From Thermofilum adornatum (GTDB lineage: Archaea > Thermoproteota > Thermoprotei > Thermofilales > Thermofilaceae), in contig NC_022093.1 of the NCBI RefSeq assembly GCF_000446015.1, positions 210,001 through 242,000 of the forward strand: a stretch of 32,000 bases of DNA, given 5' to 3'. This document shows, in pieces, positions 1,688 to 16,971 of this stretch (positions are counted from its first letter, which is position 1; each line of letters starts with the position of its first letter). The position numbers and the translations under genes are program-made. The notes beneath the pieces were generated by a model. That model ran no database searches. It worked only from the letters and a program-made list of their open reading frames with translations, and was not told the DNA's origin.

Positions 1688-2218
1688 GTGAGCGGTGAGG
1701 AAAAGGAGACTATTCCGGAGGAGTGGCTTGATAAGTTTATTAGCGAGATGATCGAGGGCGATGAGGCTTTAAAGACAATGTCTGAGCGTTTCAAGATTAC
1801 AAGGAACCTAGGGGAGGCGCTTGATTTTGCTGTTTCTCTGCTTGACAAGTATACTGCTGTTTCGATTAGTGGTTTTCCCCGGGAGGTTATCGTTGTTAGG
1901 CTTTGGGTTGTCGAGGCTAGGCGGACTAGCGGGGAGGAGGTTGTGAGGAGCAACCGTGATATTGGGTACTATGTTGTTTACCGGTACGGTATGCCTTGGG
2001 ACCCGTACGAGAGCTTTTTTGTTGCTTCTAGGGAGGAGCTGGTTGAGCGGTTGAAGGGGCTTCTTGAGAAGCTCTTCAAAGAGGATCTTGAGAAGGGCGA
2101 GGATGTGAGCATTGACGGCAGGAATTATACTTCTGTGGAGTTTCGCGGTGATGGCTATGTGGTTTTGATGGCTTTGGCTCGTCCTCATGCGAAGACTTGG
2201 TTTATGTATATTTGGTGA
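1688..2218 (+). CDS. hypothetical protein (176 aa)
   Basis: Intact ORF with a GTG start and an E/V/G/R-rich product. It is the first gene of the G+T-rich block. I recognise no family. Confidence 0.55.
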   Translation: MSGEEKETIPEEWLDKFISEMIEGDEALKTMSERFKITRNLGEALDFAVSLLDKYTAVSISGFPREVIVVRLWVVEARRTSGEEVVRSNRDIGYYVVYRYGMPWDPYESFFVASREELVERLKGLLEKLFKEDLEKGEDVSIDGRNYTSVEFRGDGYVVLMALARPHAKTWFMYIW

Positions 2219-2288
2219 GGTTTTTGGCTGTTTGATGGTTTTTGGGCTTTGTTTTTTGGGTTTTGTGGGCTTGTTTGTGGCGCGTTAG

Positions 2289-2295
2289 TTTTAAA
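2289..2295 (+). promoter_or_regulatory. TATA-like box (TTTTAAA) about 25-30 nt upstream of the ATG codons at 2314 and 2320
   Basis: The spacing fits a leaderless archaeal promoter for the deaminase gene. Confidence 0.4.
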
Positions 2296-2319
2296 GTTTT
2301 GTTTTGTGTGTGGATGTGT

Positions 2320-3666
2320 ATGGGCCTGCTTGTTGTCCGTGATGCTGAGGCTGTTTTGACGATGGATAGTGCTGGGACTGTTTTGAGGAGGCAGTCGATA
2401 CTGATACAGGATAATAGGATTGTGGCTGTGGGTGATTATGGGTCTCTTGTGTCCGGGTTTGGTAGCCCGGACGAGGTTGTTGATGGTCGTGGTAAGCTGG
2501 TTTTGCCTGGTTTCTATGATATGCATACGCATGTTGCGATGGCTGGGTTTAGGGGGCTTGCTAGCGATGTGGGGGACGTGATTTATCGTGTTTTTTGGCC
2601 TCTTGAGCGTAGCCTGGACGGGGACACGGTTTACAGGTTTGCTCTTTTGGGTGGCCTCGAGGCAGTTAAGAGTGGTGTTGTGCTTGTTGCTGACCACTAT
2701 TTCTTTATGGACCATGTTGCCAGGGCCCTGAGCGAGGTTGGGGTTAGGGGGCTGCTTGGGCACACGTATATGGATCGTGACGGCCCGTTTACTGGGGAGA
2801 GGGAGCTTAGGGCTGGATTGGAGTTTGTTGATAGGTGGTCTGGGCACGAGCTTGTTGTTCCAGTTTTGGCTCCACATGCGCCCGACACTGTTACGCGGGA
2901 GAATTTGAGGTATCTGGGCGAGCTGGCCCGTGAGAGGAATCTTTTCCTGCACATGCACCTGGCGCAGACTCTTAGGGAGTTTAGGGTTGTGAGGGAGGAG
3001 ACCGGGTATACGCCTGTGAGGTATGTTGAGAGGCTTGGGCTTCTCGGCAGGAGGACTATTGTTGCGCATGCCAACTATGTTGACGAGAACGAGAAGGCTT
3101 TGCTGGCTCATAGTGGTAGCCTGGTTGTCCAGTGCCCTTCGACGTACATGTTGTCTGGGACGCCTTTCCATGCTTATGACTATTGGCAGCTTGGGGGTAA
3201 CGTTGCTGTTGGGACGGATGCACCGTGCTACAACGATAACTCGGACTTTTTCGAGGAGATGAGGCTACTCGTTTATGGCCAGCGGGTGAAGTTTGAGAGG
3301 AGCAGTGTGTGGAGGGCCTACGACTTGCTCGAGATGGTTACTAGGCAGAGTGCGAGGTTTGTTGGGCTGGATGGGGGCTACATTGGGAGGGGGGCGCTGG
3401 CCGACCTGGTGCTTGTCGACTTGTCGAGTGTGAGGCTTAGACCTTTCCTGAACCCGTATGCGAACCTGGTGTATGCGGCTAGTAGTGGAGACGTTGATAC
3501 GGTAATTGTTAATGGTAGGGTTGTGGTGAGGGGGAAGAGGCACCTCTTCCTGGACGAGGAGCGAGTTGTTAACCAGGCGGAGGCGGCTTCTAGGATTCTC
3601 TTGCGTAGGGCCCTCGACGAGGACCCGGAGCTGGAGAGGATAATTGGCGTGGATAAAGTAATATAG
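2320..3666 (+). CDS. mtaD: amidohydrolase of the 5'-methylthioadenosine/S-adenosylhomocysteine (5'-deoxyadenosine) deaminase family (MtaD/DadD-like)
   Basis: N-terminus MGLLVVRDAEAVLTMD...IQDNRIVAVG. Metal ligands are seen at DMHTHVAM (HxH), LHMHLAQT, VAHANYV and GTDAPCYNDNSDFFEEMR, which resembles the MtaD motif GTDGAASNN..FEEMR. The ORF-track start at 2242 adds a W/F/C/V-rich extension that I reject. The likely start is ATG 2320, or 2314. Confidence 0.75.
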   Translation: MGLLVVRDAEAVLTMDSAGTVLRRQSILIQDNRIVAVGDYGSLVSGFGSPDEVVDGRGKLVLPGFYDMHTHVAMAGFRGLASDVGDVIYRVFWPLERSLDGDTVYRFALLGGLEAVKSGVVLVADHYFFMDHVARALSEVGVRGLLGHTYMDRDGPFTGERELRAGLEFVDRWSGHELVVPVLAPHAPDTVTRENLRYLGELARERNLFLHMHLAQTLREFRVVREETGYTPVRYVERLGLLGRRTIVAHANYVDENEKALLAHSGSLVVQCPSTYMLSGTPFHAYDYWQLGGNVAVGTDAPCYNDNSDFFEEMRLLVYGQRVKFERSSVWRAYDLLEMVTRQSARFVGLDGGYIGRGALADLVLVDLSSVRLRPFLNPYANLVYAASSGDVDTVIVNGRVVVRGKRHLFLDEERVVNQAEAASRILLRRALDEDPELERIIGVDKVI

Positions 3667-3687
3667 GGGGTTGCCGAGATTTTCTTG

Positions 3688-4407
3688 ATGCCGAAGCCTC
3701 TACATATTTTAGCAAAGCCGGAGGACATTGCTCCGAGGGTCATAGCTTCTGGTGACCCTGCTAGGGTTAAACAGCTTGCTGGGTATCTCGAGGGTGCCAG
3801 GCTCGTAAACGAGAACAGGGGGTTCCTCGTATACACTGGGAAGTATAAGGGTGTAGACGTCACTGTGGCTACGCATATGATTGGTGCGCCTTCTGCAGCG
3901 ATTGTATTCGAGGAGCTCATAATGCTCGGCGCCAAGCTCATTGTGAGGTTTGGGACCTGTGGGGGTTTCCTGCCAGAGATGAGGGTTGGTGACTTTGTCA
4001 TTGCTACTGGGGCTTCCTATAGCGGGGGCGGCACGATGAACACTTATAGCCCAGGTGAGTGCATGGCGGCTGTCCCGGACTACGAGGTTCTAAAGGCGCT
4101 GGTCGACAGTGCGAGCAGGCTGGGCTTGACGTTCCACTTGGGCCCCGTGATCAGCAGTGATAATTTCTATTCTGGGCTCGAGTACTTGAATAGGTGGATT
4201 GCGAGGGGCATGATTGCTGTAGACATGGAGGCCGCAACGTTGTTCCTCGTGGGGAGGCACAGGCGGATAAAGACTGGTGCAAGCTTCGTGGTGAGCGATG
4301 TTATTGGCCACGCATACGAGAAGATGGCGACCGCCGAGGAGCTCAGGGAGGCTGTAGACAAGGCTTCACGGGCAGTGCTTGATGCCGTTGTAAGCGTGAA
4401 GGTTTAA
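3688..4407 (+). CDS. nucleoside phosphorylase, PNP/UDP family 1 (DeoD / hexameric MTA-phosphorylase-like), copy 1
   Basis: GDPARV, LVNENRGF..YTG.YKG..V.V.TH.IG, RFGTCGG, VDMEAATLF and VVSDVIG, the last aligning by eye to DeoD TVSDHI. ATG at 3688, with a TTG at 3685. Confidence 0.8.
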   Translation: MPKPLHILAKPEDIAPRVIASGDPARVKQLAGYLEGARLVNENRGFLVYTGKYKGVDVTVATHMIGAPSAAIVFEELIMLGAKLIVRFGTCGGFLPEMRVGDFVIATGASYSGGGTMNTYSPGECMAAVPDYEVLKALVDSASRLGLTFHLGPVISSDNFYSGLEYLNRWIARGMIAVDMEAATLFLVGRHRRIKTGASFVVSDVIGHAYEKMATAEELREAVDKASRAVLDAVVSVKV

Positions 4408-5189
4408 TGTCAAATGTCTCGCCTACCAATAAAATATCCTTTTTTCTGGCCCGGTTTTTCTCCCAGCTTGGGGGAAAGCTACCTCTAGAAAGCGTCGTGA
4501 TTCCCTTTGGAAGGTACAGGTTTATTGTTCCTAGGAGGTGGCTGGAGGCCAGCCTGCTTAATATCGAGCACATCTATTTGCTGGGGGACTATGAGCGGGT
4601 TCCCTGCATGACGTGTGTGGAGCCAGGCGGGGCTGTGCTTGATTTGGGGGCGTTTGTGGGCTTATTCAGTGTGAGGGTGGCTTGTGAAAACAGGGATGTT
4701 AGGGTGTATGGTGTGGAGGCTAATCCTTTTGCCTGCCGGTATCTAGAGGCTAACTATAGGCTTAACGGGGTGAGAGGGGGTGGGGTTCTCTGTGGGGCGG
4801 TTGGTGTCAGGAGTGGCGTCGCGAGGCTGTTCGTGGCTGATAATGGTGTGAATTCTTCGCTTGTGCCTGGATACGTGGATGATTATTCTGTGAAGATTGG
4901 CGAGGTAGGGGTTAGGGTCTATTCTTTGCGGGAGGTTTTTGAGAAGTTTCAGCTTGATAGGGTGGCACTTGTGAAGATGGACATAGAGGGGGCAGAGGAG
5001 GGTGTTCTTTATTCTTCTAGGGAGCTTGTTTCCCCAGACAGGGTGGAGAGGTGGATTATAGAGGTTCATCCTCCCTACTCTTCTCCTAGCAGGATCGTGG
5101 GATTGCTAGAGAAAGGGTACCGTGTCGCCACGTTTTATGACTATGATGCTCCGGGCCAAGTGTTTGTGTATGGGTGGACGCGGAGGTAA
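4407..5189 (+). CDS. FkbM-family SAM-dependent methyltransferase
   Basis: VLDLGAFVGLFSVRVA, VYGVEANPFACRYLEANYRLNG and VALVKMDIEGAEEGVL match the FkbM-family pattern. The start overlaps the upstream stop as TAATG. Confidence 0.75.
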   Translation: MSNVSPTNKISFFLARFFSQLGGKLPLESVVIPFGRYRFIVPRRWLEASLLNIEHIYLLGDYERVPCMTCVEPGGAVLDLGAFVGLFSVRVACENRDVRVYGVEANPFACRYLEANYRLNGVRGGGVLCGAVGVRSGVARLFVADNGVNSSLVPGYVDDYSVKIGEVGVRVYSLREVFEKFQLDRVALVKMDIEGAEEGVLYSSRELVSPDRVERWIIEVHPPYSSPSRIVGLLEKGYRVATFYDYDAPGQVFVYGWTRR

Positions 5190-5220
5190 AACCTATATGT
5201 GTGTTGTGGGGTTATAGGGT

Positions 5221-5928
5221 ATGCCTTTCCATATACGTGCAGAAAGGGTTTCCGATAGGGTGATCGTTGTCGGGGACCCGGGGAGGGCAAGGCTTATTTC
5301 CAGCATTCTAGAGGACGCTAGGCTCGTAAACGAGAACCGTGGGTTACTCACATACAACGGTTTCTGGAGGGGAAGAGAGGTTACTGTGGCTACCCATGGT
5401 ATGGGCGGTGCCGGGGCAACAATTGTCTTTGAGGAGCTTATCCAGCTGGGCGGCCGTTTCCTGGTTCGCTATGGGACGACTGGCGGCATAAGGGAAAACG
5501 TCGAGCCGGGAGACTTCGTAGTGCCGGTTTCCGCTTTTTATCATCCCGGGGGGCTATTCAAGCAGTATTTTGGGGATCTCTGTGTCTCGCCTGCGCCTGA
5601 CCTCGAGTTGACGTGGAGGCTGAGCGAGTCTCTTAGGGGTAGGGGTCTCCGTGTGTGGGCGGCGCCCGTTGTGAGTAGTGATGCTTTCTATGCCGAGACT
5701 CCCGAGGTTGTAAAAAGGTGGAGCGAGTTTGGGGCTGTGAGCGTGGAGATGGAGTGCGCTTCTCTTTTCGCTGTTTCGCGCCTGAGGGGTGTTAGGAGCT
5801 CATCGGTTCTCTTGGTTAACGGGAACATATTGTACCCAGGAAAGAGGATGATCTCTGAGGGGGAACTAGAGGATAGGCTTCTAGCCGGGGCTAGGATCAT
5901 TTTGGACGTGCTTGCCGAGCTGAAATGA
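5221..5928 (+). CDS. nucleoside phosphorylase, PNP/UDP family 1, copy 2 (paralog of 3688-4407)
   Basis: Shares ARLVNENRG, VTVATHGMG, IVFEELIQLG, YGTTGG, GDFVV, VSSDAFY and VEMECASLF with copy 1. It has LLVNGN where copy 1 has VVSDVI. Confidence 0.8.
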   Translation: MPFHIRAERVSDRVIVVGDPGRARLISSILEDARLVNENRGLLTYNGFWRGREVTVATHGMGGAGATIVFEELIQLGGRFLVRYGTTGGIRENVEPGDFVVPVSAFYHPGGLFKQYFGDLCVSPAPDLELTWRLSESLRGRGLRVWAAPVVSSDAFYAETPEVVKRWSEFGAVSVEMECASLFAVSRLRGVRSSSVLLVNGNILYPGKRMISEGELEDRLLAGARIILDVLAELK

Positions 5929-5938
5929 GGTCATAGAG

Positions 5939-6367
5939 ATGTCTCTAACTTATAGACGCCTTACTGAGTTTAATGTTGCTGGGAGAGAGCTCCGCGAGAA
6001 GCGGAGGCTACTGGTTTATGGTAGCTGTATATTCCACGAGTACCCGGACATATTGTCAAGGTTTAGTGAGGGACGTGTGGCTCTGGGCGTGTGTCTCGAG
6101 GCGGAGCATCTCAATGTTGTGGCTTTGAAGCTTGCATCTATTTTTGCGAGGGTCGACCTGGAGGAGGTAGTTGTTTTGACTGTTGACGGTTCTCCGCACT
6201 GTATCCAGCTTCACCATGCTGTCGAGGAGGCTAGGAAGGTTACCGGGAGACAGATCAACGTCAGGCATTTCGTGATCGAGGGGGGAGAAGCTCTAGAGGT
6301 CAGCCCCGAAGCCGTGAAAGTAGCTAGGTACTTGTCAAAGATTCAAAGACTACTGAATAAGACTTAA
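5939..6367 (+). CDS. hypothetical protein (142 aa)
   Basis: Intact ORF with the same composition as the surrounding block. It contains VDGSPHCIQLHH. I cannot confidently recognise a family. Confidence 0.5.
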   Translation: MSLTYRRLTEFNVAGRELREKRRLLVYGSCIFHEYPDILSRFSEGRVALGVCLEAEHLNVVALKLASIFARVDLEEVVVLTVDGSPHCIQLHHAVEEARKVTGRQINVRHFVIEGGEALEVSPEAVKVARYLSKIQRLLNKT

Positions 6368-10751: not shown

Positions 10752-10777
10752 AAATGCAATTCTTATTAAGGATTTTG

Positions 10778-11731
10778 ATGTTTCCTGAGACAGTTGCATC
10801 TAATGTGTTTATTCCTTATCTCAGGAAACTACTGATTCTCGAGCTTCGAAGGCTTGGCATGTCTCAGACAGATATTGCTCGTCTCACTGGTGTTACTCAG
10901 GCGGCTGTCAGCAAGGTTCTTAATAAGGAGTATTTTCACAGTGAGAAGGTTTCTGGTCTGGATTTGGCTGAGCAGGAGCTGAAGGCTGTCTCGAAGAGGA
11001 TAGCGAAACTGCTGTATAATGGCAACTTGAATGAGGCTGGATATCTGGCCAATAGGTATTGGTGGCTTGTGGCTGCGAGTGGAGACGCGTGTAAGGCCCA
11101 TGAAAGGTATGGGTGGCGTAAGAGCGAGTGCTTTATTTGTACCAAGGTTGTTTACCCAGAACTCGATGTCAGCCGTGGTCTGGTGATGGCCGACCTAGAG
11201 AGAGCCCTATTAGTTTTGTCTTCGTCCGAGTATTTTGGTTTCTTGATACCGGAGGTTATGAGCAATATTGCTGTTGCTATTCCTGGCGCCAAGAGCATAT
11301 ATGACGTGGCCGCAGTTCCGGGAAGGATTTCACGTTCAAAGACGAATGAAGTTTTGTATAGGAGGCCAGAGTTTGGCGCTAGCAGGCATCTGGGCGGAAT
11401 CCTATTGTCTATCAACGGGAAATTTAGAGCTGTAATGAATATCAGATATGATGAGGTCATCCGCGAGTCACTCATAAGTATGGGTATTTCATTCAAGGAG
11501 TTTAGTAGTGAGGATTATCCTTCAGCAAATCCAGCTGCCTCTGCGGCTGCCGACTTGCTCGAGAAGTGTCCTGACTGCCGGGCACTGGTCGATGTTGGTG
11601 GGACGAATATTGAAAGTGTTGTCTATCTTTTTGGTAACCGGGCGATAGAGGTAGCGAATTTGGCTGTGTCTCTTGGTGACCTTTACTATGCGGTTTCAGT
11701 TAAATATGGGAAAAGTCTAGGGAATCTATGA
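10778..11731 (+). CDS. thiR: ThiR-type transcriptional regulator: N-terminal HTH plus C-terminal ThiN (thiamine-phosphate-synthase-like) domain
   Basis: HTH at GMSQTDIARLTGVTQAAVSKVLN. The ThiN-like part includes FGFLIPEVMSNIAVAIPGA...AAVPGRI. It is divergent from ykoEDC. The ORF track starts at 10754, but the TATA position favours ATG 10778. Confidence 0.75.
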   Translation: MFPETVASNVFIPYLRKLLILELRRLGMSQTDIARLTGVTQAAVSKVLNKEYFHSEKVSGLDLAEQELKAVSKRIAKLLYNGNLNEAGYLANRYWWLVAASGDACKAHERYGWRKSECFICTKVVYPELDVSRGLVMADLERALLVLSSSEYFGFLIPEVMSNIAVAIPGAKSIYDVAAVPGRISRSKTNEVLYRRPEFGASRHLGGILLSINGKFRAVMNIRYDEVIRESLISMGISFKEFSSEDYPSANPAASAAADLLEKCPDCRALVDVGGTNIESVVYLFGNRAIEVANLAVSLGDLYYAVSVKYGKSLGNL

Positions 11732-11813: not shown

Positions 11814-12884
11814 ATGGGTGAAAGGGGTCCTGGAACGTTGGATGCGGGTTCCCCTAGGGATGTGGCTGTTCAACTTTTGAAGTTCCTGGGTCTAACTGGT
11901 CTTGAGGCTGAATTATACCTCTTGTTGCTTGAGAAGGGTCCAATGAGTGCTCCTGAAATATCTGACCACTTGGTTAAGCATAGGCCCCAGATTCACGTTG
12001 CCTTGACTAGGCTGTCTTCTAAGGGGTATATCGAAGAGCTGGGCGGCAGGCCTAAGAAGTATAGGGCTGTTGATCCACAATTGTTGCTGAATATTTTTCT
12101 GAAAGATTTTGATGTCTTGGCGAAGAAGGCTCTAGCCTATATGCAGTCAATTTCGAGACCATCCCCCGAGGAAAAGTACGGCGTGTGGATTATACGGGAG
12201 CCGGAGGTAGCTAAGAACAGGATGGCAGAACTTTTAGACACTGCTACTACGGATGCCTTGATAATGGGCGATATAAAGTTCATACATCTCCTCAGCGAGA
12301 AGATCGAGAATGCTATAAACCGTGGGGTCCGCGTGTATGTTCTTTCATATTCTCTTGGCGAGAGGGGAGCCAAGTTTATCTTGGAAGACATGCCGTTTCT
12401 AAAGAAGCTCAGAGTTGCTGTTTCCGGAGACCTGGTAATTGTTGTCGACTCTGAACGGGGAGGCGTTCTTAAGGCTCGCCCGACTCTTCCAACTAGGCAT
12501 GGGTACCTTATCGAGGAAAGAACGCTTACAGACTACCTTTCGCATGACTTTATGAATAGATGGGTAAACGCTAAGGTGATAGTTGATGAGGACTACGAGT
12601 TGCCTTGGAGGTTTACTTTTCACAGGATGGCCCTCTATGAGACAAAGAAGCTTCTCCTCGAGAACAGGAAATTGAGGCTGAAGGTTAAGGGCTACGAGAT
12701 AGATACTGGCGCAAGAGTCGAAATAGATGGAAACATAATAGATGCGGTGCTTGACGTTCCGGCAGGATTTGCCCATTTCAAGGTTGAGACTGATTCTGGA
12801 ATAGTTAGAGTTGGTGGACTGGACGCTATTGTAGAGGAGGTTGCCGGAGAATTTTTCGAAATATATGAGGGATCTAAGCAGTAA
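11814..12884 (+). CDS. TrmB-family transcriptional regulator (wHTH plus C-terminal effector domain)
   Basis: LGLTGLEAELYLLLLEKGPMSAPEISDHLVKHRPQIHVALTRLSSKGYIEE is the classic TrmB N-terminal winged helix. At 356 aa the size matches TrmB/TrmBL proteins. Confidence 0.75.
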   Translation: MGERGPGTLDAGSPRDVAVQLLKFLGLTGLEAELYLLLLEKGPMSAPEISDHLVKHRPQIHVALTRLSSKGYIEELGGRPKKYRAVDPQLLLNIFLKDFDVLAKKALAYMQSISRPSPEEKYGVWIIREPEVAKNRMAELLDTATTDALIMGDIKFIHLLSEKIENAINRGVRVYVLSYSLGERGAKFILEDMPFLKKLRVAVSGDLVIVVDSERGGVLKARPTLPTRHGYLIEERTLTDYLSHDFMNRWVNAKVIVDEDYELPWRFTFHRMALYETKKLLLENRKLRLKVKGYEIDTGARVEIDGNIIDAVLDVPAGFAHFKVETDSGIVRVGGLDAIVEEVAGEFFEIYEGSKQ

Positions 12885-14529
12885 ATTTGTACTTTATTAT
12901 TTCCCAAGCTAGCCGCGGAGTCAAGTAGGAGAGTACAATTTTCTTCATTGGGTAGAGCTCCTCTTCTTTTAGGGTTTCCTTGGAGTCAAAGACCCCCGCT
13001 TTTTTCATTTGTCGCGCCAGACTTATGCTCTGAATAACTGCGGCATAGTATTCGTCGTCGATGAGTCCAACCTTGTGCTTGCTCTTGGCTAGGCTTTCAA
13101 CAGCGTTGTATGTTGCTTCTGCTATTTCTCGTCTTGTCAACCACTGGGTTTCATAGTTTAACATTTCGTGCCAGTTTTTAGCAAGAAGCAGTTTCCGGTG
13201 GTCTGTCAGGGTATAGGCGTATAGCTTGTATCCATATTTTGCCGATTTGTGGAAAGCTATGCTTCCAGGATCAACGAAGGGTGCAAGTGGGGCGACGAAG
13301 GCATCAACGGTGTTTGGGGCTTCTTGCCAGAGCTCCTCGAAAAAGCTTCCAATTGGTCTTACGTTTTCAACTGTCTGGCCGGGTAGGCCTATCATAAAGT
13401 AAAGGTCTATTCTTTCGAAGCCTAGTTGCTTGGCGTTTCTTAGGAAGGTTTTGAGTGTTTGGTTTGTGTAGGGTCTACCGTAGTGTCTTCTTATTTCTTC
13501 GTCCTGAGATTCAGGCGAGATCTGAAGGTAAACTCTTTCGCTGGCTTTCCTCATAAGTTCCAAGACCTCTCTCGGTGGGGGTACGAAAAATTCGAAGAAT
13601 ACTTCCAGGTCTTGTTTTTCGCTACTTAGGAGCTTCGTTAGCTTTTCTATGTAGGTTTTTCCTAGAACCTGGAGGTCGTTGACAAAAAATATTGGCGCCT
13701 TTAACCTCTCGGTTATTTCCTTGTATTCCTCAAAAAGGGTTTCAGGCTTCTTTATTCCTAGATTTTTCCTTTGAAAGATTACGCTATAGGTAAAGTGGCT
13801 TCCCCCGCATGCTAGACAGTTGTAGGTACACCCCTTATAGGTTATTACAGCCGTGACGGGGTGCTTTAGAAATGTGCTCCATGGAAGCGAGAGGGTAACC
13901 CCGCTTCTGACCATAACTTTTACGACTATATCGTACTTGGGGCGAAGCTCGTCGAGTTCTGCTGGGACGTATTTTAAGCCTGTGAATTTTATTTTCCCGT
14001 CTTTTGTCCTGTAGGCTATATTAGGTATCTCCTTCAATTCCTCTAGGAGACCTTTCTCGAGCTTTTGAAGAAGCTGGTAGAATATGGGCTCGGTTGTGTC
14101 GCCAAGGACAATGGCGTCTACAAAGGGATAGTTTTCTAGTATCTCGCGCCAATAGTAGGTGGATGAGAGGCCGCCAAGAACAACTGGATTCCCCGTGATT
14201 TCTTTAACTAGCTTTGCAACTTCAAGGGCACCGTGGGAATGAACCAGCCAGTGGAGATCTATACCGTATACTTTGGCGTCTATTTGACGGATCAGCCTTG
14301 CTACATCTACATTGGGATCGTTCACCATTTTAGCGGCGATGTTGTATATGCCGGTCTTTATTCCTCTCTCTTCTAGGTATGAAGCCAGCGAGAAGAAACC
14401 CGCAGGATACATGTCGAAGATAGGTTTAGATGGTATAACGTCGCTTATGGGACCATAATTTACGTAGGTATGTTTCCTGAAGTCGTATACGCTTGGTGCA
14501 TGTATGAGAGCCAAGTCTAAGTGCTTCAC
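12874..14529 (-). CDS. B12-binding-domain radical SAM protein (class B-like), function unknown
   Basis: The N-terminal Rossmann-like part (VYGIDLHWLVHSHGALEVAKLVKE...NPVVLGGLSSTYYW) is followed by CTYNCLACGG (CX3CX2C). GTG start. TAATATTAA lies on the minus strand about 26 nt upstream. Confidence 0.8.
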   Translation of the reverse strand: MKHLDLALIHAPSVYDFRKHTYVNYGPISDVIPSKPIFDMYPAGFFSLASYLEERGIKTGIYNIAAKMVNDPNVDVARLIRQIDAKVYGIDLHWLVHSHGALEVAKLVKEITGNPVVLGGLSSTYYWREILENYPFVDAIVLGDTTEPIFYQLLQKLEKGLLEELKEIPNIAYRTKDGKIKFTGLKYVPAELDELRPKYDIVVKVMVRSGVTLSLPWSTFLKHPVTAVITYKGCTYNCLACGGSHFTYSVIFQRKNLGIKKPETLFEEYKEITERLKAPIFFVNDLQVLGKTYIEKLTKLLSSEKQDLEVFFEFFVPPPREVLELMRKASERVYLQISPESQDEEIRRHYGRPYTNQTLKTFLRNAKQLGFERIDLYFMIGLPGQTVENVRPIGSFFEELWQEAPNTVDAFVAPLAPFVDPGSIAFHKSAKYGYKLYAYTLTDHRKLLLAKNWHEMLNYETQWLTRREIAEATYNAVESLAKSKHKVGLIDDEYYAAVIQSISLARQMKKAGVFDSKETLKEEELYPMKKIVLSYLTPRLAWEIIKYKFTA

Positions 14530-14607
14530 AGAAAAATGGAGCCCTTAGGTTAATATTAGTTTTTTGTAAAATTTTTCCTTAATAGAAAACTAGATTTCGT
14601 TCAGGCT

Positions 14608-15678
14608 TTAGGGAATGACTTCGACCGTATTATTGTAAGGAGGGTAAAGAATGTCTTTTAGAGTAATTCTCCCCTCTTTTAAGTAGTTTTTTATGGTTGG
14701 AAGTGCCTCTAGAAGGGAATCTATGAGGCCTATAGTTGCTTTGCACACTTCTTTGAAGCCGTTTTCGCCCCAAAGCCTCTCCATGTATGCGTACAAGCAC
14801 CTTCCACCACAATACCTGTAGTAGCTACAGGAGATACAGGGTTCACCTATTTTTGGAGCAGACTCGGGGCTAAGTTTGCCTTGAGAAATATTTCCCAGCT
14901 CTGCCCATTTCTCCTCTACAGCTATGGGGCAGGCAAGAATCCTCCCATCAGTTAAAATCGAGAAAGAATTCACTCCAGCCCCACAGGGCGGAGCGGCATA
15001 ATTATCAATGAATGTTTTTGTTATGATAGCCTTAAATGGGGCAATTCCAAGTACTGTTCCCCTCGACATCTCTTCAACCCAAACATCAACCAGCTTCCTT
15101 ACCCCGGGAAGGTACGACGCATCCCTCCATTGCTGGAAGTTTTTCCATCTGTCGCTCCATACAACGTCTAGCTGCCAGTGTACATGGGTGAATAGTTTCA
15201 ATGATAAAAGATGCATGACGTCTAGATAAATATCTGTATCCTCTGTCACAGTCATCCTTGCTATTAAATCACCTGTGAAACCTATTGTCCTTAGCCACTC
15301 TGCGGTAGATATTACTTTTTCGTAGACCCCTTTTCCGCGATACTTGTCCGTAACTTCTGGCCTGCCGTCTATAGACAAGAGTATTGCATCGAACTTGAGC
15401 CAGTAATCTTTTGGAAGACTCCTGGGAATCGTCCCGTTTGTCTGAATGACAAAATGTTTCACTTTGACATTGTCAATCGCCCACATTATAAATTCAGGGT
15501 TTAGAAGCGGCTCGCCACCATAAAATGCAATGACCGCCTCGGGGTCTTTCTCAATAAACCTTTTAAGATACTCAGGGTTGTATTGTATTTTCCAAGGCAC
15601 TTTTCTGGGGTCGAAGCTTCCCCCACAATAAGCGCATTTCAGGTTGCATTGACCAGTCGTGTGCACTATGTAGAGCAT
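14608..15678 (-). CDS. radical SAM protein with a C-terminal SPASM domain (peptide- or cofactor-maturase-like), function unknown
   Basis: CNLKCAYC (CX3CX2C) at the N-terminus and FYGGEPLL. The full SPASM cysteine pattern is present: CGAGVNSFSILTDGRILAC (CX12GX4C), CISCSYYRYCGGRC (CX2CX5CX3C) and a later Cys in FKEVCK. Confidence 0.85.
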   Translation of the reverse strand: MLYIVHTTGQCNLKCAYCGGSFDPRKVPWKIQYNPEYLKRFIEKDPEAVIAFYGGEPLLNPEFIMWAIDNVKVKHFVIQTNGTIPRSLPKDYWLKFDAILLSIDGRPEVTDKYRGKGVYEKVISTAEWLRTIGFTGDLIARMTVTEDTDIYLDVMHLLSLKLFTHVHWQLDVVWSDRWKNFQQWRDASYLPGVRKLVDVWVEEMSRGTVLGIAPFKAIITKTFIDNYAAPPCGAGVNSFSILTDGRILACPIAVEEKWAELGNISQGKLSPESAPKIGEPCISCSYYRYCGGRCLYAYMERLWGENGFKEVCKATIGLIDSLLEALPTIKNYLKEGRITLKDILYPPYNNTVEVIP

Positions 15679-15790
15679 ATTTAGGGGTTCACCATTGATG
15701 TTCTATGTTCCTAGACCCGTAGCAGTAAGAGGATATAACCATTCAGCAAATAATTTTATTCTAGAAAAATTCGCTGCAGTGTTTTCTCTC

Positions 15791-16066
15791 CTAGAAGCGG
15801 CTTAAAAGATCCTCTATGCATCTCATGTAGGCATCATGTCTTTCGCACTTGAGGATTGTTACGCCGGGCACGTTTTCGTATCTAAGGTGGAGCTCGATCA
15901 CTTCTCCTTTTTCCTCGTGGAACCTTACCTTTGCCGTCTTTGTTCCCAGCTTGATTATCAGCGTTTTTTCTCCTTCTTCCTCTGTTTTTGTTACATCGTA
16001 TCCCCTGAATTGTAGCGTCTTCATTACTAGGTCAACTGCCTCTTCTACTCTCATGGTTCTCTCCAA
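15791..16066 (-). CDS. hypothetical small protein (91 aa; alternative start 16054)
   Basis: Intact ORF, E/K-rich, with two Cys near the C-terminus (KCERHDAYMRC). It lies 112 nt upstream of the SPASM gene on the same strand. Confidence 0.5.
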   Translation of the reverse strand: MERTMRVEEAVDLVMKTLQFRGYDVTKTEEEGEKTLIIKLGTKTAKVRFHEEKGEVIELHLRYENVPGVTILKCERHDAYMRCIEDLLSRF

Positions 16067-16119: not shown

Positions 16120-16971
16120 ATGAGGATCGGGTTTATTGGCACAGGTCAAATGGGTTTCCCAATGGCCCGCCACCTCGCCGGAACAGGCAACGAAATAACT
16201 GTTTGGAACAGGACTATTGAGAAAGCTAAACCACTAGCCAACTATGGAGCTAGGATCGCGGGAAGCATAAAGGAGCTTGCAGAAAACTCGGACGTGATTT
16301 TTATCATGGTTGCCGACGACGAGGCTTCTAGAAGCGTCCTTAAAGAGGTTTTCAGCCATGGGAAGCCCCAAATCATTGTGAACCACAGCACAGTTTCGCC
16401 TATACATACACGGGAAGCCTACGAAAATGCTATTGCAGTCGGAACCGAGTACCTAGCCGTACCCGTAATGGGTAATCCCACAAATGTTGAAAAGGGAGAC
16501 TGCCTCTGTATTGTGGGTGGAAGCGAAAAAGCGTTTCAGCAGGTCAGCGGCTTGACTGGAAGGTATTGCAAGGAACATGTATATGTAGGCAGTCCTGAAA
16601 AGGCCTCGGCAATAAAGCTGGCGCTAAACAGTATGTATTTTATGGCTCTAGAGTCTCTCGCCGAGGCTTTGCTCTTGGTAAAATCCTGGGACGTCGGCGA
16701 GAACGAGTTTCTGGAAATTGCGAGTAAACTATGGCTTAAAGTAATCGTGGATAGATATGCACACAGGCTATTAGACGAATCGACCCCCACTAGCTTTCAA
16801 ATGAAGCTCGCTACGAAGGATCTTTTTTATGCTGTCCTATCGGGGTATCACAGGGGCCAACCACTGCCAGTAACAACGAGGCTTGCAGAGATATTCTTGG
16901 AGGCCTCCAAATTGGGGAGGCTAGGCGACAAGGACTATACGAGAATCTACAAGTTCTTAGGCTCCAAGTAG
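16120..16971 (+). CDS. NAD(P)-dependent beta-hydroxyacid dehydrogenase (3-hydroxyisobutyrate / 6-phosphogluconate dehydrogenase-like)
   Basis: MRIGFIGTGQMGFPMARHL dinucleotide-binding motif, then VWNRT...A and an AIKLALN helix typical of the HIBADH family. Confidence 0.8.
   Translation: MRIGFIGTGQMGFPMARHLAGTGNEITVWNRTIEKAKPLANYGARIAGSIKELAENSDVIFIMVADDEASRSVLKEVFSHGKPQIIVNHSTVSPIHTREAYENAIAVGTEYLAVPVMGNPTNVEKGDCLCIVGGSEKAFQQVSGLTGRYCKEHVYVGSPEKASAIKLALNSMYFMALESLAEALLLVKSWDVGENEFLEIASKLWLKVIVDRYAHRLLDESTPTSFQMKLATKDLFYAVLSGYHRGQPLPVTTRLAEIFLEASKLGRLGDKDYTRIYKFLGSK

Follow-up and report, generated by a model that had tools for sequence, protein, structure and literature searches.

The tail-modifying enzymes known so far in archaea are all radical S-adenosylmethionine (SAM) enzymes, several of them of the B12 type (PMC11214058; 10.1101/2025.10.20.683597). 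In Sulfolobus acidocaldarius, GrsA (Saci_1585) and GrsB (Saci_0240) are the ring synthases of glycerol dibiphytanyl glycerol tetraethers (GDGTs; Zeng et al. 2019, reviewed in PMC13459092), and Cgm (Saci_1785) is a GDGT methylase (bioRxiv 10.1101/2025.10.20.683597); Gms joins an AhbD-like SPASM core to a ~100-amino-acid (aa) N-terminal COG4001 domain and is at least 400 aa long (PMC11214058). Maturases offer a second point of comparison: PapB (ranthipeptides), QhpD, CteB (SCIFF), and anSME have a radical SAM core and a SPASM domain with two auxiliary clusters. The menaquinone C-methyltransferases MqnK, MenK, and MenK2 offer a third, and are class C, HemN-like radical SAM enzymes without a B12 domain. 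Here, we analyze a locus in a 32,000-nucleotide stretch of the Thermofilum adornatum genome (G000:C1:210001-242000; hereafter the window), in which genes for a 551-aa B12-type radical SAM enzyme, a 356-aa radical SAM/SPASM enzyme, and a small Cys-bearing protein follow one another on the minus strand. An earlier note on this DNA had put forward two hypotheses, that the genes form an archaeal RiPP-like (ribosomally synthesized and post-translationally modified peptide) or protein-crosslinking system, or that they tailor lipids in the manner of the tetraether synthase Tes and of Grs.

We favor a different reading, with a probability of roughly 0.7: three independent genes that would stand together through inherited Thermofilaceae gene order and would not form a dedicated modification system. 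The two enzymes belong to large families whose members elsewhere have other neighbors, and for the B12-type family these neighbors point to prenylated quinones.

Results

The enzyme pair as a lineage-specific adjacency

The 551-aa gene (positions 12874-14529, GTG start) and the 356-aa gene (14608-15678) are separated by a 78-bp spacer (14530-14607), and a 112-bp spacer (15679-15790) separates the 356-aa gene from the small open reading frame (ORF; 15791-16066). All three lie on the minus strand, just where the earlier note had placed them. The 551-aa protein matches family TIGR04190 and the 356-aa protein family TIGR04084, and we followed both families through relatives, a phylum survey, and metagenomes.

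Among 61 relatives, the enzyme genes are adjacent or nearly adjacent in all seven other genomes of the same genus (g1) and its sister genus (g4). Inside the family, each enzyme also occurs without the other: genera g2 and g5 carry only TIGR04190, and g3 only TIGR04084. In genomes of family f10 that possess both, the two genes are either on different contigs or separated by 73 kb to 1.16 Mb. In the phylum survey, an even sample of 301 genomes, 134 carried TIGR04084, never in more than one copy; TIGR04190-type genes were present in 22 (over the cut-off in 18), and 7 of these 22 genomes had no TIGR04084. Adjacency was seen only in the genus of the Thermofilum locus, and outside Thermofilaceae the two families co-occurred no more often than the background rate. 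Similarly, a metagenome scan with the TIGR04190 family alignment returned 80 loci, and TIGR04084 was adjacent to TIGR04190 in just three, all of Thermofilaceae type; in two further, Korarchaeum-like loci it lay 5-7.5 kb away.

Neither family brought a fixed partner with it. ORF clustering of 24 TIGR04084 loci from ~22 families revealed no recurrent neighbor (no gene was shared by more than three loci, at 2-5 kb) and no precursor peptide gene traveling with the enzyme, and the neighbors of TIGR04190 in Thermoproteota genomes were common only to close kin. Because adjacency is limited to Thermofilaceae and TIGR04084 has no recurrent neighbor, the genomes compared indicate that the pair is a lineage-specific adjacency. 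The notion of conserved neighbors thus holds inside Thermofilaceae only; the genes are apart in Thermoproteaceae-type genomes that have both, and the closest B12-enzyme homologs have no SPASM gene beside them. The latter are four complete proteins (L123-L126, on contigs Ga0272445_1006112, Ga0315272_10001328, Ga0080008_147762, and Ga0080008_158395) that are 84-86% identical to the 551-aa enzyme and nested inside the Thermofilum clade. Their neighbors, on GC-richer contigs, are glycosyltransferase and archaeal-ATPase genes, without SPASM, TrmB, or small-ORF genes. Pyrobaculum-type B12 copies are also nested in the Thermofilaceae clade, again without a SPASM neighbor. Taken together, both cases suggest that the 551-aa-type gene has changed lineage or locus independently of its cluster neighbors.

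Ten Thermofilaceae genomes share one gene order: a divergent HIBADH-like gene, the small ORF, a ~240-aa gene, the SPASM enzyme gene, a variable slot, the B12 enzyme gene, and a convergent TrmB-family gene. The ~240-aa gene encodes a signal-anchored protein with no Pfam match and lies between the small ORF and the SPASM gene in all nine genomes other than that of T. adornatum. The variable slot is occupied in other Thermofilaceae by a gene for a 108-aa protein, a LysE-type exporter gene, or both, and the sister genus has a BtpA-family gene inserted earlier in the array. T. adornatum alone of the ten has no 240-aa gene, and the 108-aa and LysE-type genes are missing as well; all appear to have been cleanly lost from its cluster.

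Such an array could also be a Thermofilaceae-specific module, in which the small, 240-aa, SPASM, LysE-type/108-aa, and B12 proteins make and export a modified small molecule, and of which T. adornatum keeps a reduced version. Several facts pull in this direction and away from independent genes. First, the order of five genes is kept across two genera, in ten genomes. Second, the spacers in T. pendens are short (16-101 bp), and in one genome (locus L072) no nucleotide separates the LysE stop (4369) from the start of the B12 gene (4370). Third, K. cryptofilum provides a second, weak case of proximity, with the two families ~5 kb apart and five unrelated genes between them, as do the two related metagenome loci mentioned above. 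However, flanking genes of unrelated function (TrmB, HIBADH-like) are equally syntenic, so descent alone predicts the shared order. The accessory genes are dispensable in T. adornatum, close B12 homologs have left the cluster alone, and both the separate occurrence of the enzymes inside the family and their background rate of co-occurrence outside it speak against a joint function. We consider a lineage-specific functional module unlikely, albeit one to be kept in view.

A small protein that occurs without the enzymes

The small ORF is real, as the earlier note had it, and does encode Cys residues; the length of 91 aa given there counts from a TTG codon. An ATG at 16054 yields 87 aa, the same length as the T. 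pendens homolog, and is probably the true start. We found homologs in 17 of the 61 relatives, all of them Thermofilaceae or members of one neighboring family. Searched exhaustively, a set of 1.84 billion representative proteins yielded only eight clusters at E ≤ 1e-3, and Pfam and NCBIfam scans gave no match. Two Cys are invariant across the 17 aligned homologs, in the motif G-x-T-[IV]-[LV]-x-C-[ED]-x7-C. Some of these homologs occur in genomes without TIGR04084 (G008, G011, G015, and G021) or without both enzyme families (G014), and in G024 and G037 the homolog and the enzyme genes are on different contigs. Since the Cys are invariant even where the enzymes are absent, their conservation is independent of the enzymes. 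AlphaFold2, given a two-sequence input, predicted an alpha-beta4-alpha fold (predicted local distance difference test score, pLDDT, 84.3), for which a PDB fold search returned no significant match. By distribution and predicted fold, the small ORF would be a real conserved protein that is unrelated to the enzymes and is not a precursor peptide. Wherever its context is visible, the small gene is divergent from the HIBADH-like gene, including at a locus with no radical SAM gene nearby (L083, from G008). If the small protein works with anything, then its partner would be this divergent dehydrogenase gene.

These data bear directly on the first hypothesis, in which the SPASM enzyme would link the two Cys of the 87/91-aa protein, by a thioether or similar bond, and the B12 enzyme would methylate it. 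The small protein, with its two invariant Cys, does lie upstream on the same strand, and the closest characterized SPASM relatives (PapB, QhpD, CteB, and anSME) act on peptides or proteins. Nevertheless, the modeled protein is a folded domain and not a leader-core peptide, its family does not reach beyond Thermofilaceae and their near relatives, whereas each enzyme family has thousands of members, and its Cys persist in the genomes listed above without TIGR04084 or without both enzymes, where the small gene lies on other contigs. In 9 of the 10 genomes, moreover, another gene stands between the small ORF and the SPASM gene. Together with the features of the SPASM enzyme described next, these findings leave the RiPP-like or crosslinking hypothesis very improbable.

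The SPASM enzyme and its maturase relatives

The 356-aa protein matches TIGR04084 (rSAM_AF0577) with 500.6 bits (cut-off 225); its residues 6-356 align with positions 2-347 of the 347-position model, which bears out its earlier assignment to the AF0577 family. The complete seven-Cys SPASM domain that had been read from the sequence is also there: model TIGR04085 matches with 36.6 bits (cut-off 27), and the seven C-terminal Cys (232, 250, 281, 284, 290, 294, and 312) have the SPASM spacing C-x13-G-x4-C ... C-x2-C-x5-C-x3-C ... C. A CX3CX2C motif is formed by C11, C15, and C18. Given this motif and the seven-Cys domain, three [4Fe-4S] clusters are expected in the enzyme. Its only Pfam domains are Radical_SAM and a weak Fer4_12, and it has no N-terminal extension, the radical SAM motif beginning at residue 11.

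The nearest solved structures are those of the thioether maturase CteB (5wgg, E 2.6e-12) and the sulfatase maturase anSME (4k37), with E values of ~1e-11 to 1e-12. These maturases, PapB, and QhpD share the radical SAM core and two-auxiliary-cluster SPASM domain of the 356-aa protein, but the best maturase models score far under their cut-offs (PapB, 90 bits against 340; QhpD, 51 against 453; anSME, 47 against 349). The 356-aa protein also differs from them in having no leader-recognition (RRE/PqqD-like; RRE, RiPP recognition element) domain and no precursor gene, and in being much more conserved. Its identities to TIGR04084 proteins from many archaeal families, those of S. acidocaldarius-like genomes among them, are 37-69%, which is far above the usual conservation of RiPP maturases. 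TIGR04084 is present in 11 of 11 genomes of the family that includes S. acidocaldarius-like genomes (f31) and is single-copy in T. adornatum. With a full-length match, a complete seven-Cys SPASM domain, and a single copy, nothing sets the 356-aa protein apart from its family; it is, by these criteria, predicted to be an ordinary TIGR04084 member and a stand-alone, three-cluster radical SAM/SPASM enzyme. In the literature searched, no paper mentions the accession TIGR04084. We noted that the K. cryptofilum TIGR04084 gene (L036, CP000968.1, 4716-7341) is divergent from an S-adenosylmethionine synthetase gene, and that a gene for a 91-aa helix-turn-helix (HTH) protein comes after the TIGR04084 gene.

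The B12-type enzyme and its quinone-gene neighbors

The 551-aa protein matches TIGR04190 (B12_SAM_Ta0216) with 720.5 bits against a cut-off of 500, residues 5-531 covering positions 1-528 of the 554-position model. Pfam assigns a B12-binding domain (PF02310, 50.9 bits, residues 38-148) and a Radical_SAM domain (PF04055, 56.3 bits, residues 228-391), and so confirms the cobalamin-binding-like N terminus and CX3CX2C cluster that had been recognized by eye. The protein contains exactly three Cys, C234-x3-C238-x2-C241, and hence none for an auxiliary cluster; all three are among the 80 invariant columns of the TIGR04190 family alignment. No hydrophobic segment of transmembrane level was seen in it, a PDB sequence search with it gave no match, and the TIGR04190 family has a copy number of one in the genome. 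Like its relatives, it has the B12-binding-like Rossmann domain, the single CX3CX2C motif, and a full-length match, with nothing to set it apart. We therefore class it, on its domains and motifs, as a putative class B (cobalamin-type) radical SAM enzyme and an ordinary TIGR04190 member, predicted to bind cobalamin. Neither a characterized member nor a paper on TIGR04190 appeared in the literature searched.

Outside the Thermofilum lineage, TIGR04190 relatives adjoin quinone genes, which the 551-aa gene does not. At seven metagenome loci (L137, L139, L142, L146, L147, L180, and L202), genes for a UbiE/MenG-like methyltransferase, a MenA-like UbiA prenyltransferase, and a polyprenyl-diphosphate synthase lie ~0-3 kb from TIGR04190, and the best models for the MenA-like partner are those of 1,4-dihydroxy-2-naphthoate (DHNA) polyprenyltransferase. 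Five B12 proteins that we checked, four quinone-linked and one linked to SelA, all proved to be true TIGR04190 members (640-687 bits). The quinone-linked members are spread over at least four separated, well-supported clades of a maximum-likelihood tree, and one of these four or more is inside a 31-row clade (support 97/98) together with Korarchaeum-like and Thermoproteia sequences, T. adornatum's included. Given that TIGR04190 stands beside MenG, MenA, and prenyl-diphosphate synthase genes elsewhere, the substrate of the 551-aa enzyme would most likely be a prenylated quinone or a closely related isoprenoid. Caldariellaquinone is the primary quinone of Sulfolobales (PMC11962113), and we counted the absence of TIGR04190 from three named Sulfolobales genomes, with their use of this quinone, in favor of the quinone link.

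T. adornatum itself has genes of this kind. A same-strand cluster at G000:256397-259550, ~14-17 kb past the right end of the window, comprises a geranylgeranyl-reductase (GGR)-family gene, a UbiE/MenG-like methyltransferase gene, and a hexaprenyl-diphosphate-synthase-like gene, and suggests synthesis of a methylated prenylquinone whose tail is saturated. A MenA-like UbiA prenyltransferase gene (310 aa; 150 bits, under cut-off) at G000:1694441-1695373 overlaps the start of a gene for a 415-aa AhbD-like radical SAM/SPASM protein. The latter (G000:1695364-1696611) has a ~65-aa N-terminal extension, scores under the equivalog cut-off, and is a candidate Gms-like, quinone, or haem enzyme.

Four points weigh against a quinone substrate. 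First, the quinone genes are not adjacent to the 551-aa gene: the MenG-like cluster is ~32 kb and the MenA-like gene 1.47 Mb away. Second, none of 22 Thermofilaceae genomes gave a match to PF02621, the marker of the futalosine pathway, so that futalosine-route menaquinone synthesis shows no simple co-occurrence with TIGR04190 in this lineage. Third, all quinone-like partner proteins score under equivalog cut-offs. Finally, the largest TIGR04190 clade sampled adjoins UshA-like, SelA, and formate-dehydrogenase genes instead. In the literature searched, no paper connects menaquinone with a radical SAM enzyme of the B12 type. Should the substrate indeed be a quinone, MqnK, MenK, and MenK2 would share with the 551-aa enzyme a prenylated naphthoquinone target and late radical SAM tailoring, although by description they are of a different radical SAM class and would be related to it in sequence through the superfamily core only.

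Two other settings of TIGR04190 genes caught our attention. In the large clade just mentioned, which is probably bacterial (L150-L201, for example L190 and L191), a UshA-like phosphoesterase, the B12 enzyme, SelA, an RluD-like protein, and an FdhE-like protein are encoded in fixed order, and formate-dehydrogenase subunit genes lie near this array. ThiN-domain genes accompany TIGR04190 in two lineages: an HTH-ThiN regulator is encoded at 10754-11731 of the window, ~1.1 kb from the 551-aa gene, and in a Thermoproteaceae-type genus (L090, 6564-9510; L092; L093) the B12 gene has a 455-aa ThiN-domain ORF behind it on the same strand, with 2-23 bp between the two. Ancestral synteny or a connection with thiamine could account for these arrangements.

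Comparison with archaeal lipid enzymes

The second hypothesis of the earlier note, lipid tailoring of the Tes or Grs kind, did not survive comparison with the enzymes themselves, since T. adornatum encodes Tes and a GrsA-type protein in other genes and the 551-aa protein is unlike Grs. Tes is at G000:856855-858687 (NF045702, 708 bits; cut-off 450), and NF045702 is neither one of the 15 models that match the 551-aa protein nor among the 25 best of the 56 families matching the 356-aa protein. A 517-aa GrsA-type protein is encoded at G000:1313076-1314629. It is the single copy of its type in the genome, shares 57% identity with a radical SAM protein of ~506 aa found in all three Sulfolobales genomes and 31% with a 532-aa paralog in Metallosphaera, and has abundant relatives of 64-70% identity in Desulfurococcales.

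To anchor these matches, we used a complete S. acidocaldarius-like genome (G099), located by a 100% identical Sac7d. Locus-tag places in it were inferred at ~850 bp per tag, calibrated on Sac7d and on the GrsA/GrsB matches, and were not read from annotation; for this calibration we took Sac7d to be Saci_0064 and Sac7e to be Saci_0362. The 517-aa protein matches G099 at 1.354 Mb (58% identity) and 0.200 Mb (34%), which by position we infer to be Saci_1585 (GrsA) and Saci_0240 (GrsB), respectively, and G000:1313076-1314629 would accordingly be the GrsA ortholog of T. adornatum. The 551-aa protein has no significant similarity to the 517-aa protein (pairwise E = 0.3), the TIGR04190 model does not match the two Grs-position genes in G099, and neither the 551-aa protein (E ≤ 1e-3) nor the TIGR04190 model (E ≤ 1) has a match in the three named Sulfolobales genomes. 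In published screens for Grs, the limits were E ≤ 1e-40 and a length of 400 aa or more (bioRxiv 10.1101/2022.08.15.504015). Pfam B12-binding, when used to list Grs-type proteins in Sulfolobales, found mostly mutase small subunits. Hence, Grs resembles the 551-aa protein in being a B12-type radical SAM enzyme of ~500-550 aa from a tetraether producer but has no detectable sequence relation to it, and the blank in Sulfolobales, the E value of 0.3, and the separate GrsA ortholog rule out TIGR04190 as Grs.

The sole match of the TIGR04190 model in G099 is a 585-aa ORF at 1.551 Mb (66 bits, E 1e-18). Its position is close to the one expected for Saci_1785 but does not coincide with it, and the ORF is probably Cgm. 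Its 66-bit score is of superfamily level, comparable with matches to HpnJ and BchE. The 551-aa enzyme and the class B enzymes Gmm, Cgm, Pgm, and Ted, which act on inert isoprenoid carbons (PMC11214058; bioRxiv 10.1101/2025.10.20.683597), plausibly share a type of chemistry, but their similarity is likewise confined to the superfamily level and no grs, gms, or tes gene is near the 551-aa gene.

For the SPASM enzyme, three lipid identities were considered. Gms is ruled out: the 356-aa protein is 356 aa long, its motif starts at residue 11, and AhbD-type models are not among its top matches. The TIGR04084 member of G099 is at 0.323 Mb (~Saci_038x; 600 bits), and this genome position, inferred from locus-tag spacing, argues against Saci_0343. 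At ~1.266 Mb, the inferred place of Saci_1489 (Cds), the TIGR04084 model has only a 25-bit match; that the 356-aa protein is the calditol synthase Cds is unlikely, insofar as the inferred locus-tag positions hold. By sequence comparison, then, neither enzyme appears to be Tes, Grs, or Gms.

A broader version of lipid tailoring would have the B12 enzyme methylate, desaturate, or in some other way modify tetraether tails, as Gmm, Cgm, Pgm, or Ted-like enzymes do, and the SPASM enzyme form a C-C link in the manner of Tes or Gms. The organism does make tetraethers, to judge from its Tes and GrsA genes, known tail-modifying enzymes are of the right superfamily, and the one TIGR04190-model match in the S. 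acidocaldarius-like genome lies near Cgm's expected place. The evidence on the other side is that the 551-aa protein is not similar to Grs, that the 66-bit score is no higher than for HpnJ or BchE, that the SPASM enzyme does not have the Gms architecture, and that TIGR04084 is present throughout f31 and in many lineages, whatever lipid modifications are known from them. No lipid gene recurred beside TIGR04084 or TIGR04190 in the neighborhoods compared. We judge GDGT tailoring by the pair improbable. A new kind of lipid tailoring by the pair could still be entertained, but the family associations point to quinone and not to GDGT genes.

Flanking genes and other features of the window

The T. 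adornatum genome is a single contig of 1.75 Mb (99.96% complete), and the nearest named relatives of the locus proteins are from Thermofilum and Infirmifilum. The earlier suggestion that each gene has its own TATA element is plausible. AT-rich, TATA-like stretches (TTTTACAAAAAA and TAATATTAA) lie ~20-45 nucleotides upstream of the GTG of the 551-aa gene, in the 78-bp spacer, and the 112-bp spacer is AT-rich with TATA-like stretches as well; separate promoters for the genes are thus plausible.

On the plus strand, a TrmB-family transcription regulator gene (11814-12884; PF11495, 199.5 bits; PF01978, 58.6 bits) is convergent with the 551-aa gene and overlaps its 3' end by 11 bp. This gene is a syntenic flank of the cluster across the genus; a regulatory role for the cluster is not shown. 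On the other side, a gene for an NAD(P) dehydrogenase that resembles HIBADH and 2-hydroxy-3-oxopropionate reductase (16120-16971, plus strand; PF03446, 122.7 bits; TIGR01505, 111.5 bits, under cut-off) is divergent from the small ORF, and the spacer between them is AT-rich and 53 bp long. Elsewhere in the window, positions 2000-6000 have a G+C content of 0.51-0.54, as against ~0.44 in the rest, with strong GC skew. An Rfam scan of all 32,000 nucleotides gave no match at gathering thresholds, so this GC-rich stretch is not ribosomal RNA.

Discussion

If the three genes are independent, then each enzyme has a reaction of its own to be accounted for. In the 551-aa enzyme, the single [4Fe-4S] cluster would cleave SAM to give a 5'-deoxyadenosyl radical, which would take a hydrogen atom from an unactivated carbon of the substrate. 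The B12 domain would then most likely give a methyl group or handle the substrate radical. We suggest that the substrate is most likely a prenylated quinone or a close isoprenoid membrane compound. The composite proposal, that cobalamin-dependent radical chemistry, most likely the transfer of a methyl group, takes place on an isoprenoid of the prenylquinone type, is built from inference at every step, and we give it somewhat less than an even chance; the main alternative for this enzyme is GDGT tailoring.

The proposal may extend to the family. TIGR04190 enzymes, the 551-aa protein included, may carry out an undescribed cobalamin-dependent radical step on the prenylated naphthoquinone-type carriers of anaerobes and thermophiles, which we advance tentatively and see as clearly short of an even bet. 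Examples of such a step would be C-methylation of the ring or tail, or methylthiolation as for quinones of the methionaquinone/thermoplasmaquinone type. Thermofilum would then keep the late step, along with MenA-like and MenG-like genes, without the futalosine pathway, which implies a salvaged or unidentified source of the head group.

The 356-aa enzyme, for its part, would use three clusters in a radical SAM reaction, and its substrate would be conserved and encoded away from this locus. This substrate is most likely either a protein side chain, as for anSME and QhpD, or a small molecule or cofactor. By analogy, its nearest characterized relatives favor a protein side chain, which is not shown here.

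What does this mean for the locus and for the two families? For the locus, our analysis is mainly a correction: annotation as a cassette for RiPPs, crosslinking, or GDGT tailoring should be avoided. The two radical SAM families, TIGR04190 and TIGR04084, are large, well conserved, and catalogued, without an assigned substrate. For TIGR04084, S. acidocaldarius has a clear ortholog (~0.323 Mb) and so provides a genetically tractable archaeon in which to study the family. For TIGR04190, the repeated pairing of its genes, in separate clades, with genes of the MenG-like, MenA-like, and prenyl-synthase kinds makes a new quinone-tailoring reaction a concrete, testable hypothesis. If true, such a role would matter for anaerobic respiratory chains and for the use of quinones as biomarkers.

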